Shown here: one piece after another, positions 2,840 through 11,501 of the stretch
How the letters are laid out: each line of letters starts with the position of its first letter
How positions within the stretch are numbered: position 1 is the stretch's first letter
DNA from: a virus
Strand: one strand, 5' to 3'
Virus genome (UHGV): UHGV-0065581
Length of the DNA stretch: 14,166 bases
Notes under the pieces: generated by a model
Database searches by the model: none
What the model was told of the DNA's origin: nothing
The model's input: the letters and a program-made list of their open reading frames with translations, nothing else
Made by a program: the position numbers and the translations under genes

Positions 2840-3322
2840 ATGTCAGGACCTCCGAAAACCCCGCCACACCTGCATTTGATTCGAGGCAACCCCTCAAAGC
2901 GCCCCGTTAAAGACCACAAAAAAACCGCTAAAAAGGATGAAAAAGGTCTTCCTAAAATTCCGCAGCATTTAGGGGCTCAGGGGAAGTACTGGTTCAGGCG
3001 AATGGCGGAAGAGCTGAATGCGGAAGGGATCATTTCTCAGCTTGATGCGCGTGCGCTCGAGTTGCTGGTGGAAGCCTACACCGAATATCGGCATCACTGC
3101 GAAACACTCGATGTTGAGGGGTATACCTACCGCACGGAAACGCAGAGCGGTGATGTACTGATTAAGGCGCACCCCGCGGCGGCAATGAAAGCGGATGCCT
3201 GGAAGCGGATCCGGGCAATGCTTGCAGAGTTTGGTATGTCACCGGCAAGCCGGGCTAAAGTAAATATCGCCGGACCGGATGATGTTGATCCGCTGGCGGA
3301 GCTTTTAAAAGCGAGAGACTGA
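2840..3322 (+). CDS. terS: Terminase small subunit, P27 family
   Basis: 160-aa ORF with a basic, Pro-rich N-terminus (PPKTPPHLHLIRGNPSKRPVKD) and a C-terminus ending FGMSPASRAKVNIAG, typical of P27-family small terminases. Its stop overlaps the large-terminase start (TGATG). Confidence 0.85.
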   Translation: MSGPPKTPPHLHLIRGNPSKRPVKDHKKTAKKDEKGLPKIPQHLGAQGKYWFRRMAEELNAEGIISQLDARALELLVEAYTEYRHHCETLDVEGYTYRTETQSGDVLIKAHPAAAMKADAWKRIRAMLAEFGMSPASRAKVNIAGPDDVDPLAELLKARD

Positions 3323-5079
3323 TGGCAAAAGTGGCTGACGGGATCCGCTACGCCGAACGTGTTGTTGCAGGAGAAATTGTTGCTGGCGAATTTGTCCGCC
3401 TGGCCTGCCAGCGTTTTCTTGATGATCTGAAGTACGGCGAAAAGCGGGGGATTTATTTCAGTGAACCCCGTGCGCAGCACATCCTGAATTTCTACAAATT
3501 TGTGCCTCATGTAAAAGGGGCACTGGCAGGCCAGCCCATTGAGTTGATGGACTGGCATGTATTTATCCTCATTAATATTTTTGGTTTTGTCATTCCGCTG
3601 GTCAATGAAGAGACCGGGGAAGTTGTCATGCGCAGCGATGGCAGCGGACGTCCGGTGATGGTGCGCCGGTTCCGGACGGCGTACAACGAAGTCGCCCGTA
3701 AAAACGCAAAATCAACTCTGTCATCGGGTATCGGCCTGTATATGACGGGGGCAGATGGTGAAGGCGGAGCTGAGGTGTATTCAGCCGCAACCACGCGTGA
3801 CCAGGCCAGAATCGTGTTTGAAGACGCCAAAAATATGGTCAGAAAAGCCAGGTCGACACTCGGGCGGTTGTTTGATTTCAACAAGCTGGCGATTTACCAG
3901 GAGCAGAGCGCATCAAAATTTGAACCGCTTTCTTCGGATGCAAACAACCTGGATGGTCTGAACATCCACTGCGCCATTATTGATGAGCTGCATGCACATA
4001 AAACCCGTGACGTGTGGGACGTTCTGGAAACGGCAACCGGTGCCCGTCTGCAGTCCCTTTTATTTGGTATCACCACGGCAGGGTTTAACAAGGAAGGGAT
4101 TTGTTACGAGCAGCGTGATTACGCCATCAAGGTATTGCGTGGCTATAACAGCGACGTGGAGGGCGCTGTAAAAGACGACTCTTACTTTGCGATCATTTAC
4201 ACGCTTGATGAGGGAGATGATCCGTTTGATGAAACGGTCTGGCAGAAAGCGAATCCTGGCCTGGGCATCTGTAAACGCTGGGATGATCTGCGTCGTCTGG
4301 CGAAAAAAGCGAAAGAACAGGTCTCTGCGCGGGTGAATTTTTTTACCAAACACATGAATGTGTGGGTAACAGCAGAGTCTGCCTGGATGGACATGATTAA
4401 GTGGGAGAAGTGCGAATACATTGCCCCACGACATGAGCTGAAAACGTATCCCATGTGGGTCGGCGTTGACCTTGCTCATAAGATTGATATCTGTGCGGCG
4501 GCAAAACTCTGGCGAACGGATAACGGGCATGTTCATGCCGATTTTAAATTCTGGCTTCCGGAAGGACGGCTGGAACGATGCTCGCGGCAGCAGGCAGAAC
4601 TTTACCGGAAGTGGGCGGAGATGGATAAGCTGATTCTGACGGATGGTGATGTTATCGATCATGCTCAGATAAAAAGTGACTTACTGGAATGGATTGGTGG
4701 TGAAAACCTCAGGGAACTGGGATTTGACCCGTGGAGCGCAATGCAGTTCAGCCTGGCACTGGCTGAAGAAGGGATACCGCTGGTGGAGGTTCCGCAGACG
4801 GTCCGCAATCTGTCAGAGGCCATGAAGGAAACGGAATCACTGGTCTATGCCGGGCGTTTCCATCACAGCAATCATCCGGTCATGAACTGGATGATGTCTA
4901 ACGTTACGGTAAAACCGGACAAAAACGACAATATCTTCCCGAATAAATCCACGCTGGAAGCCAAAATCGACGGCCCTGTTGCGATGTTTACAGCAATGAG
5001 CCGGATGCTGGTCAATGGTGGTGAACCGGAGCTGGATCTGTCTGAACATCTGGTCAGCGTGGGCATCCGCTCGCTTTAA
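3322..5079 (+). CDS. terL: Terminase large subunit (ATPase and nuclease)
   Basis: 585-aa ORF immediately after terS, with a nucleotide-binding region near residue 100-130 (ARKNAKST) and an acidic nuclease-like C-terminal half. Size and position match the HK97-type large terminase. Confidence 0.9.
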
Positions 5080-5090
5080 CCGAGGTCATT

Positions 5091-5291
5091 ATGTTTCTGA
5101 TAATTCTCGCGCCACTGGTGGGCGTGCTGGGTGCGCTTTTGCTGGCGTATGGTGCCCGGCGGGTTTTGTTGTTGCCGGGGTGCTGTGCCTGTTCTGGTCG
5201 TGGCTGGTGGCGCGATATCTCGACCGTACACAGCCGTCTGTCGGCGGAGGTAAATAGTGTTCTTTTCGGGATTATTTCAACGAAAAAGTGA
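5091..5291 (+). CDS. Hypothetical small hydrophobic protein between terL and portal; reading frame and extent uncertain
   Basis: ATG at 5091 with GAGG 5 nt upstream begins [24 protein letters not shown] (a TM-like helix). The -1 frame over 5150-5257 also encodes a TM-like segment ([32 protein letters not shown]) whose TAG stop overlaps the portal GTG start. See findings. Confidence 0.3.
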
Positions 5292-6498
5292 CGCGCCGGT
5301 GACCACGCCAGCAGAGCTGGCGGATGCCATCGGGTTGTCTTACGACACCTATACCGGAAAGCAGATCAGCAGTCAGCGGGCCATGCGACTGACGGCGGTT
5401 TTTTCCTGCGTCAGAGTGCTGGCAGAGTCGGTCGGGATGTTGCCCTGCAATCTGTATCACCTGAACGGCAGCCTGAAACAGAGGGCCACCGGCGAACGTC
5501 TGCATAAGCTGATCTCCACGCATCCCAATGGCTATATGACGCCGCAGGAGTTCTGGGAGCTGGTGGTCACCTGTCTGTGCCTGAGGGGAAACTTTTACGC
5601 CTACAAAGTGAAAGCATTTGGCGAAGTGGCTGAACTGCTGCCCGTCGATCCCGGTTGTGTAGTACCGAAGCTTAACAGTCGCTGGGAACCGGTCTATCAG
5701 GTCACATTCCCGGACGGTTCCACGGATGTACTGAGCCAGGAAGATATCTGGCATGTGCGCACGCTGACGCTGGACGGTCTGGTGGGACTGAATCCCGTCG
5801 CCTATGCCCGCGAGGCAATATCGCTGGCAGCAGCGACCGAAGAGCACGGGGCCAGACTGTTCAGCAATGGTGCGGTGACGTCCGGTGTGTTGCGTACAGA
5901 ACAGACGCTGTCGGATCAGGCTTATGAGCGCCTGAAGAAAGATTTTGAAGAGCGTCACACCGGGCTTGGCAATGCTCACCGCCCGATGATCCTTGAGATG
6001 GGGCTGGACTGGAAGTCGATGGCGCTGAACGCCGAGGACAGCCAGTTCCTGGAAACCCGCAAGTTTCAGCTTGAAGAAATCTGTCGTCTGTTCCGGGTGC
6101 CGTTGCACATGGTGCAGAACACCGATCGCGCCACCTTCAACAATATCGAAGAGCTGGGGCTGGGATTTATCAACTATTCACTGGTGCCGTATCTGACCCG
6201 CATCGAACAGCGGATCAACACCGGACTGGTACGAAAAAGTAAGCAGGGCGTTTATTACGCCAAATTTAACGCCGGGGCGTTACTGCGCGGGGATATGAAG
6301 TCCCGTTTTGAAGCCTACGCCACCGGGATCAACTGGGGAATTTACTCTCCCAATGACTGCCGCGACCTGGAAGATATGAATCCGCGTCCCGGTGGGGATG
6401 TCTATCTCACACCGATGAACATGACCACGAAACCCTCCGATGGCAGTAAAGCCGGTAAGCAGAAGGATAACGCCAATGCAGACGAAACAACGTCTTGA
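5257..6498 (+). CDS. Portal protein, HK97 family
   Basis: 413-aa ORF from GTG at 5257 with GGAGG 6 nt upstream. Position after the large terminase, size and acidic C-terminus fit a portal protein. Confidence 0.88.
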   Translation: MFFSGLFQRKSDAPVTTPAELADAIGLSYDTYTGKQISSQRAMRLTAVFSCVRVLAESVGMLPCNLYHLNGSLKQRATGERLHKLISTHPNGYMTPQEFWELVVTCLCLRGNFYAYKVKAFGEVAELLPVDPGCVVPKLNSRWEPVYQVTFPDGSTDVLSQEDIWHVRTLTLDGLVGLNPVAYAREAISLAAATEEHGARLFSNGAVTSGVLRTEQTLSDQAYERLKKDFEERHTGLGNAHRPMILEMGLDWKSMALNAEDSQFLETRKFQLEEICRLFRVPLHMVQNTDRATFNNIEELGLGFINYSLVPYLTRIEQRINTGLVRKSKQGVYYAKFNAGALLRGDMKSRFEAYATGINWGIYSPNDCRDLEDMNPRPGGDVYLTPMNMTTKPSDGSKAGKQKDNANADETTS

Positions 6499-10801: not shown

Positions 10802-11187
10802 TGAGGATAGATGTGATGACTAAAAATATCCGTAATCTGGCACTGGCAACGATGTCGGGGTTTCGTCATAAAACTGTTGATGTGCCTGAATGGGAAGGGG
10901 CAACGGTTGTATTACGGGAACCTTCTGCAGAAGCCTGGTTGCGCTGGCAGGAGATCGTTAAAGCAAAAGATGATGAGACACCGTTATCCGTTGCGGAGCG
11001 CGCCCGCCGAAATCTGGAAGCGGATGTTGAACTGTTCATCGATGTTCTGTGTGATACCGGACTGCAACCTGTATTTTCAGAGGATGATCGTGAACAGGTG
11101 ATTGCCGTGTATGGCCCGGTGCATGCGCGGCTTCTTCGGCAGTCTCTGGAACTGATCAGTGATGCCGGCGAGGTTAAAAAAAAGTAG
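10801..11187 (+). CDS. Tail assembly chaperone (gpG-like), zero-frame product
   Basis: ORF directly after the major tail gene (TAATG overlap), ending EVKKK* at a slippery A-run. Alternative start ATG at 10816. Position and acidic character fit the G chaperone. Confidence 0.75.
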   Translation: MRIDVMTKNIRNLALATMSGFRHKTVDVPEWEGATVVLREPSAEAWLRWQEIVKAKDDETPLSVAERARRNLEADVELFIDVLCDTGLQPVFSEDDREQVIAVYGPVHARLLRQSLELISDAGEVKKK

Positions 11188-11501
11188 CGCTTCCGGGGAT
11201 GCGTTTTCTGATGATGCTGGCGCTCAGGATGGGGCGCACATTGTCAGAGTTACGCCGGGAAATGTCCGCATCAGAAATCATGATGTGGGCAGAATTTGAC
11301 AGGTTCAGCCCGCTGGGGGACGAACGGGCTGATATCCGGGCTGCCCAGATTGTTTCAGCTGTTTACGGTGCGCAGGGGGTGGGAGAAGGAGCAGACAGAA
11401 GGCGTATCAGATCCATTTGCTGGACTGGAAAACGCGCTTTTAATAGTGTCTCAGTGAGTCAACATAACCGCTTCGGCGGTTTTTTTTCGTCCGGAGAATG
11501 A
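10801..11501 (+). CDS. Tail assembly chaperone GT-like fusion, made by programmed -1 ribosomal frameshift at A AAA AAG (11178-11184)
   Basis: The -1 frame carries TAA at 11175-11177, immediately before the slippery heptamer, and is then open to TGA at 11499-11501 (…KKVALPGMRFLMMLALRMGRTLSELRREMSASEIMMWAEFDRFSP...). This is the conserved G/GT arrangement between the major tail and tape measure genes. Confidence 0.7.
11178..11184 (+). promoter_or_regulatory. -1 programmed frameshift slippery heptamer A AAA AAG
   Basis: Canonical X XXY YYZ motif (same heptamer as E. coli dnaX) at the last codons of the G-like ORF, within an 8-A run at 11176-11183. Confidence 0.7.
11466..11487 (+). terminator. 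Terminator-like hairpin AACCGC-ttcg-GCGGTT with a T8 tract, inside the 3' end of the GT extension and 11 nt before the tape measure start
   Basis: 6-bp stem with a UUCG-type tetraloop and a run of eight T, read directly from the sequence. It overlaps codons NRFGGFFSS of the -1 frame. Confidence 0.5.

Follow-up and report, generated by a model that had tools for sequence, protein, structure and literature searches.

Between the large terminase (terL) and portal genes of the virus genome UHGV-0065581, two hydrophobic helices are encoded in two different reading frames. This raises the question of whether the locus holds a small membrane-protein gene expressed through a ribosomal frameshift or one that has been broken. 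We examined it within the window, i.e., the whole 14,166-nt stretch of DNA that was analysed, and compared it with related prophages.

Layout of the terL–portal interval

Coordinates read from the sequence bear out the layout described in an earlier note on this DNA (Table 1). There are 177 nt between the TAA of terL (5077–5079) and the GTG of the portal gene (5257). As had been described, an ATG at 5091, preceded by a good ribosome-binding site, opens a frame encoding a transmembrane (TM) helix. A second such helix lies in the -1 frame and ends at a TAG (5255–5257) that has one base in common with the portal GTG. The continuation of the ATG frame, which stops at a TGA (5289–5291), does overlap the portal gene by 35 nt, and this tail consists of Cys/Arg-rich out-of-frame codons. 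Hydrophobicity analysis found a single hydrophobic segment left in the ORF that now stands. The same note regarded a gap of this size as unusual for an HK97-type module; annotated relatives indicate the opposite, as a filled terL–portal interval is the rule in this phage lineage.

Table 1. Features of the terL–portal interval of UHGV-0065581, with positions counted from the first nucleotide of the window.
Feature	Position	Strand	Basis
Large terminase gene, 585 aa, intact, stop TAA 5077–5079	3322–5079	+	ORF list; Pfam TerL_ATPase/TerL_nuclease on same contig; RefSeq annotation of 99.1%-identical prophage
Ribosome-binding site GAGG, 5 nt before ATG 5091	5082–5085	+	Sequence; GAGG columns invariant in six-sequence alignment of relatives
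5' remnant of PHROG 502 gene, codons 1–22, TM helix 1, ATG frame	5091–5156	+	Sequence shared at 100% with the E. coli AR_0089 and PEC41 copies; residues 1–22 match PHROG 502
Junction of 16-nt deletion (CCTGGCTGATTTATCC missing), W23-L-I-Y-P27 and one base lost	5154–5157	+	Alignments; junction 24-mer searches
3' remnant of same gene, P28–K60 and TAG, TM helix 2 and basic tail, -1 frame relative to ATG	5156–5257	+	Alignments; frame arithmetic
ORF now standing, 66 aa, TM1 plus 44 out-of-frame Cys/Arg-rich residues, extending 35 nt into portal gene	5091–5291	+	ORF list; translation
GGGTTTT, incidental heptamer, in phase with helix-2 frame	5161–5167	+	Alignment; frame arithmetic
Portal Shine-Dalgarno GGAGG, inside C-terminal Gly-Gly codons of small gene	5245–5249	+	Sequence; G58/G59 invariant in family alignment
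HK97-type portal gene, 413 aa, GTG start, intact	5257–6498	+	ORF list; RefSeq annotation of 99.1%-identical prophage; PF04860

A 16-nt deletion separates the two frames

By BLAST, 26 phage records and 1,415 records of E. coli complete genomes matched the interval. In every annotated match a gene of 183–186 nt occupies the terL–portal gap, and all aligned relatives carry it as one continuous ORF of this length. The encoded 60–61 aa are uninterrupted in every relative examined, including ST64B sb3, phiP27 L37, the E. coli protein WP_000478567.1, and copies from Klebsiella, Enterobacter, and Buttiauxella. The earlier note had proposed comparing the homologous interval in related prophages, where an intact single-frame ORF was indeed conserved rather than absent. 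Both remnants in UHGV-0065581 share every nucleotide (100% identity) with the corresponding halves of the intact E. coli prophage gene of 183 nt, and their identity to the copies of ST64B and P27 is about 90%. The full identity to the E. coli halves means that the two-frame pattern is not a product of chance.

Alignments with these relatives show that UHGV-0065581 alone lacks 16 nt, CCTGGCTGATTTATCC, at 5154/5155, where a CC microhomology makes the exact placement ambiguous. The lost bases encode W23-L-I-Y-P27, the most conserved motif of the family and the turn between the two helices, together with one further base. Removal of these five codons plus one base explains why the frames of helix 1 and helix 2 differ by one. 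ST64B Sb3, phiP27 L37, and WP_000478567.1 represent the same gene in the same slot, beginning 11 nt after terL and with a stop codon overlapping the portal start; unlike them, UHGV-0065581 has lost the W-L-I-Y-P turn codons and its frame is broken.

The deleted allele was found in this DNA only. Among the 1,415 E. coli records, the highest identity across the 421-nt interval was 96.3%, which equals the cost of the 16-nt gap, so that the deletion is present in none of them. A 24-mer spanning the deletion junction had no exact match in 185,579 representative genomes, IMG/VR, or JGI metagenome contigs. Only one contig on record encodes the 66-aa product, namely ENA ERZ1690225 NODE_686, which is this same DNA.

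Comparison with the protein family led to the same picture. The intact E. coli protein matched PHROG 502 with E = 1.6e-27 over model positions 3–57, whereas the match of the 66-aa product was restricted to residues 1–22 (model positions 3–24, E = 1.4e-4). The product thus falls short of the whole model of about 58 positions, although the two remnants jointly cover all of it but the deleted turn. Two TM helices joined by a G-A-W-x-I-Y-P-P-A-G turn are the hallmark of the family, and this architecture is missing here with the loss of W23–P27. The position directly 5' of an HK97-type portal gene, with a stop/start overlap, is retained by the 3' remnant. UHGV-0065581 thus holds a broken rather than a working member of PHROG 502.

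We therefore conclude with high confidence that the interval is a damaged copy of a known, conserved phage membrane-protein gene, split by a 16-nt deletion and requiring no recoding. The earlier note had proposed a small two-TM membrane protein either disrupted by or expressed through a -1 shift near GGGTTTTG, or else split by a single-base error. Its two-TM gene, the disruption, and the native stop overlapping the portal start all stood, but the cause and position did not, as the lesion is a 16-nt deletion at 5154/5155, upstream of GGGTTTTG. The two-frame feature is a private deletion allele of an already annotated gene, and as such ordinary. There is no recoding event here, and annotation should mark a frameshifted pseudogene of a known gene.

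Origin of the deletion

The contig carrying the deletion, ENA ERZ1690225 NODE_686, is a SPAdes-style metagenome contig of low coverage (2.54x). We compared it with the closest complete prophage, in E. coli 23AR0998, which is 99.1% identical and differs from UHGV-0065581 by five indels. Three of the five are 1-nt differences in homopolymer run length, at 166, 2796, and 11480. These run-length variants also occur in the complete genomes AR_0089 and APEC O1, indicating that they are polymorphisms rather than private errors. The remaining indels are the 16-nt deletion and one of 32 nt (GTCAAAGTGCCACTGAATGATGCGCTTCTTCA) at 11378, within the tail-assembly T gene (ORF 11199–11501), where it exchanges the final 35 aa of T for out-of-frame sequence. 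APEC O1, 042, and CE10 match the flanks of the 32-nt deletion with 100% identity, and all three keep the 32 nt. Hundreds of E. coli genomes match these flanks at 99% or more, and wherever one of them was aligned or listed, the 32 nt were present.

Both private deletions break the frame and both have a 2-nt microhomology. Collapse during de Bruijn assembly was considered as their source and rejected, since it needs a repeat of about k-1 nt, as against the 2 nt found at each deletion; at least one read must therefore have carried each of them. As a separate observation, the sizes of the deletions, 16 and 32 nt, are both powers of two, but the start of the 16-nt deletion lies off any 16-nt boundary counted from the contig start, and we base no conclusion on these sizes.

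Other damaged alleles of the small gene have been deposited. E. coli PEC41 (AC13O1_RS09440, NZ_CM168023.1 1920329–1920501) has independently lost 10 nt (GCCTGGCTGA) from the same inter-helix loop, and RefSeq marks this allele as a frameshifted pseudogene. The PEC41 allele resembles that of UHGV-0065581 in being a small, frame-breaking deletion in the same loop of the same gene. It differs in its end-points and length, and in lying in a degraded prophage with a truncated portal gene and a replaced terL, whereas the neighbouring head genes of UHGV-0065581 are intact. Several further frameshifted or internally deleted alleles of the small gene are present in public protein sets. Together with PEC41, these indel alleles suggest that the repeat-rich, GC-rich inter-helix loop is prone to small deletions.

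On balance, we lean towards the 16-nt deletion being a real inactivating mutation in a decaying prophage. That it is instead an artefact of library preparation or amplification, taken up into a metagenome assembly of 2.5x coverage, falls only a little short of an even chance.

Alternative explanations for the two frames

Three other explanations take the two frames, or the ORF that now stands, differently. We consider it very improbable that the 66-aa ORF is a functional new variant of the protein. The ribosome-binding site, start codon, and TM1 are all kept and the frame is open, but the exact product comes from that one contig, and its tail consists of conserved codons read out of frame. Independent frameshift alleles elsewhere (P0130, P0093, P0096, P0106) enter this same frame, each at a point of its own, and no post-deletion substitutions point to adaptation.

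Programmed -1 ribosomal frameshifting at GGGTTTTG (5161–5168), fusing helix 1 to helix 2, has a slimmer chance still. A -1 change of frame is indeed what would be required, and GGGTTTT lies near the switch point. However, aligned relatives all encode the protein in a single frame, leaving nothing to recode, and about 1,400 matching E. coli records all keep the 16 nt. The heptamer is also out of phase: it is in register with the helix-2 frame (frame 1), while the ATG frame (frame 2) reads CGG GTT TTG rather than X_XXY_YYZ, so that it cannot carry ribosomes from helix 1 to helix 2. All intact relatives contain GGGTTTT as well and read straight through it as ordinary codons (A-G-F-V). Nor would the fusion restore the protein, because joining TM1 to TM2 without the invariant W-x-I-Y-P turn yields one continuous hydrophobic stretch. 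The hybrid protein, for which the earlier note had put forward TM topology prediction as a check, would thus be missing W23, Y26, and P27 and would not be the native hairpin. The two-frame arrangement occurs in a single contig, its junction being absent from all collections searched, and Rfam had no match across 4800–5600.

A canonical -1 site does occur elsewhere in the same DNA. The sequence A_AAA_AAG at 11178–11184 lies directly before the TAG of the tail chaperone gene, and the -1 frame leads into the T ORF. The tail chaperone frameshift of the lambda G/GT type resembles the small gene in that two overlapping frames are joined by a -1 change. It differs in having an in-phase X_XXY_YYZ just before the 0-frame stop; the small gene lacks an in-phase heptamer, and none of the relatives examined shows its two-frame state.

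A single-base sequencing error, such as a homopolymer miscall near 5155–5175, would fit the low coverage of the contig and its 1-nt homopolymer differences from the closest relative at 166 and 2796, but we give it next to no credence, as the contig differs here from every relative by exactly 16 nt of complex sequence, not by one base, and the 1-nt variants at 166, 2796, and 11480 are common to complete E. coli genomes.

The intact gene encodes a conserved, predicted membrane hairpin

The intact gene is a small phage membrane-protein gene of an ordinary kind, carried by thousands of related prophages. PHROG 502 is annotated as "membrane protein" and filed under 'moron / host takeover'; its named members include ST64B Sb3 ("membrane protein"), phiP27 L37, an SfII "putative integral membrane protein", and E. 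coli WP_000478567.1. Each of 48 diverse members tested matched the PHROG 502 model (48/48). A database search gave 163 clusters when a 90% identity cut-off was applied. Of the 120 that were listed, 81 have a length of exactly 60 aa, and the genera represented are Escherichia, Shigella, Salmonella, Citrobacter, Klebsiella, Enterobacter, Yersinia, Hafnia, and Buttiauxella. An HMM search of 1.84 billion representative proteins recovered 399 representatives at E <= 1e-3. Many of these contain the motif [YF]GAWxIYPPAG[FY]I, and in some the hairpin is duplicated in tandem (P0155, P0179, P0183, P0193).

Invariant positions of the family include P8, G11, G14, G21, W23, Y26, G30, G35, C38, W41, S42, G58, and G59. 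In the turn G-A-W-x-I-Y-P-P-A-G, W23 and Y26 are invariant while P27 and P28 are conserved in at least 90%. The codons of G58 and G59 carry the GGAGG Shine-Dalgarno sequence of the portal gene, which would suit the view that the interval is a non-coding spacer or structured RNA governing portal translation, its hydrophobic frames being incidental. Distant orthologues make this view exceedingly improbable: synonymous sites are saturated (dS about 0.7–3) while amino acids are conserved (dN 0.11–0.22; dN/dS 0.04–0.22), which indicates purifying selection on the peptide rather than on an RNA, and the peptide motif outlasts nucleotide identity across phyla with no Rfam match.

For the intact protein, AlphaFold2 predicted helices at residues 2–25 and 27–57 with a break at Y26/P27 (mean pLDDT 75). 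Charged residues (R47, D50, R51, and K60) are confined to the C-terminal tail, a distribution that under the positive-inside rule suggests a hairpin with both termini in the cytoplasm (N-in/C-in) and the aromatic-proline turn at the periplasmic face. For the intact protein, Pfam and NCBIfam searches yielded nothing beyond sub-threshold hydrophobic noise, and a sequence search of the PDB found no relative of it. Foldseek against viral models returned only uncharacterised helical hairpins at E >= 0.09, a result of little information given that the query is itself a 60-aa hairpin. A literature search for Sb3, L37, and a membrane protein between terminase and portal found nothing on the function of the protein.

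Assignment as a class II holin was considered and rejected, as the gene is not part of the lysis cassette, located at the start of this DNA, and matches no holin family. The filing of PHROG 502 as a moron would lead one to expect a promoter and terminator of the gene's own, and these were not in evidence. The only promoter-like match is weak (9 of 12), spans 5076–5104, and ends inside the ORF, and no + strand terminator flanking the small gene was found in this DNA. The lack of a convincing flanking promoter or terminator argues against a classical moron. The small gene follows terL by 11–12 nt and overlaps the portal gene.

The small gene is linked to the portal gene across distant phages

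We surveyed the neighbourhood of the small gene in more divergent phages. In Enterobacter, Buttiauxella, and a divergent E. coli copy (62% identical), the gene order is HNH – TerS (P27 family) – TerL – [60 aa] – portal – protease – capsid, and at each of these loci the stop of the small gene and the start of the portal gene overlap by 1 nt. Klebsiella phi6.3 has the core terL – [61 aa] – portal. A motif search of IMG/VR supplied 80 loci, in 76 of which a portal-frame start codon could be assigned close to the stop of the small ORF. The overlap is 1 nt in 51 of these 76 loci and 4 nt in eight, while a gap of 0–3 nt is found in another 11; at a few loci, the portal gene lies 137–831 nt downstream rather than abutting.

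The overlap persists where the portal is only 26–41% and TerL only 21–38% identical to those of UHGV-0065581. Some loci pair the small ORF and portal gene with a TerL of a different type. Several have extra genes between TerL and the small ORF, which shows that the small ORF is linked to the portal gene rather than to terL. Genomes of Reyranella, Sphingopyxis, Shinella, Rhodoferax, Serratia, Edwardsiella, Pseudaeromonas, and Geobacter share this arrangement, with a 1-nt overlap in most of these genomic loci. Micromonospora and Ruminococcaceae have it with slightly larger overlaps, of 4 and 23 nt, respectively. It thus spans Alpha-, Beta-, and Gammaproteobacteria, Geobacter, Micromonospora, and Ruminococcaceae. 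The recurrence of a stop/start overlap across such distantly related phages suggests a portal-linked role. This membrane hairpin is absent from Pfam and filed as a moron by PHROGs, but few genes in a very large HK97-like clade are tied as closely to the portal.

Consequences of the deletion and a possible role at the portal

These observations can be combined into a model of how the intact and deleted alleles would be expressed. The intact gene belongs to the late operon and its translation terminates on the portal start codon, while its product would be a 60-aa inner-membrane hairpin comprising TM1, a tight turn, TM2, and a short basic tail. Because its stop overlaps the portal start, portal translation is expected to be coupled to that of the small gene. 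The 16-nt deletion, with its 2-nt microhomology, eliminated the turn and put the codons that follow out of frame. Ribosomes that initiate at ATG 5091 would then make TM1 and a nonsense tail before terminating 35 nt inside the portal gene, leaving helix 2 stranded in the -1 frame. As these ribosomes would pass the Shine-Dalgarno sequence and start codon of the portal gene, coupling by termination and reinitiation should be lost on the deleted allele. Portal synthesis would then depend only on de novo initiation at GGAGG-N7-GTG. Should the deletion prove real, it would be a natural knock-out of a putative portal-partner factor.

Two well-known phage proteins bear on what such a factor might do. 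Lambda gpW is a soluble head-completion protein, and its gene is likewise a small ORF in this slot, between terminase A and portal B. The likeness ends there, as the small protein here is a hydrophobic two-TM hairpin rather than soluble, and a Pfam scan of the intact protein at E<=10 listed no gpW family. A homologous 60-aa hairpin in Escherichia phage vB_EcoM-606R7 (ON470580.1) is labelled 'head-tail joining protein W', probably through transfer of the label by position from lambda. T4 gp40 is a small membrane factor for assembly of the gp20 portal initiator. This is a functional analogy only, with no homology claimed, but it would explain why a membrane hairpin is tied to a portal gene.

By gene linkage and by analogy with T4 gp40, the hairpin could work with the portal at the inner membrane, most plausibly by localising, anchoring or nucleating assembly of the portal or procapsid. 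Extended to the family, PHROG 502 proteins would be dedicated membrane partners of HK97-type portals, i.e., hairpins of 50–70 aa whose translation is coupled to the portal among phages of Proteobacteria, Geobacter, Actinobacteria, and Firmicutes, and which could tether portal or procapsid assembly to the inner membrane or nucleate it there. We put this forward as a speculative proposal that is rather unlikely to hold in full. The PHROGs category of 'moron / host takeover' implies a different role and counts against it, and a membrane step is not known to be required for HK97-type heads.

Other genes in the window

Two further loci in the window deserve mention. A YdfR-family gene (about 85–436), 3' of the holin gene, is frameshifted by an A7 run at 160–166, where most relatives have A6. 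The same A7 allele is present in E. coli AR_0089, whose gene RefSeq marks as 'frameshifted', indicating a shared polymorphism at a slippery run rather than a private error. An iss gene (increased serum survival, encoding a Bor-like lipoprotein) lies at about 1522–1815 on the minus strand, between the lysis cassette and the HNH endonuclease gene. The closest E. coli prophage also has iss in this slot; among other close relatives, the slot is missing in SMS-3-5, and AR_0089 carries a GNAT acetyltransferase gene there.
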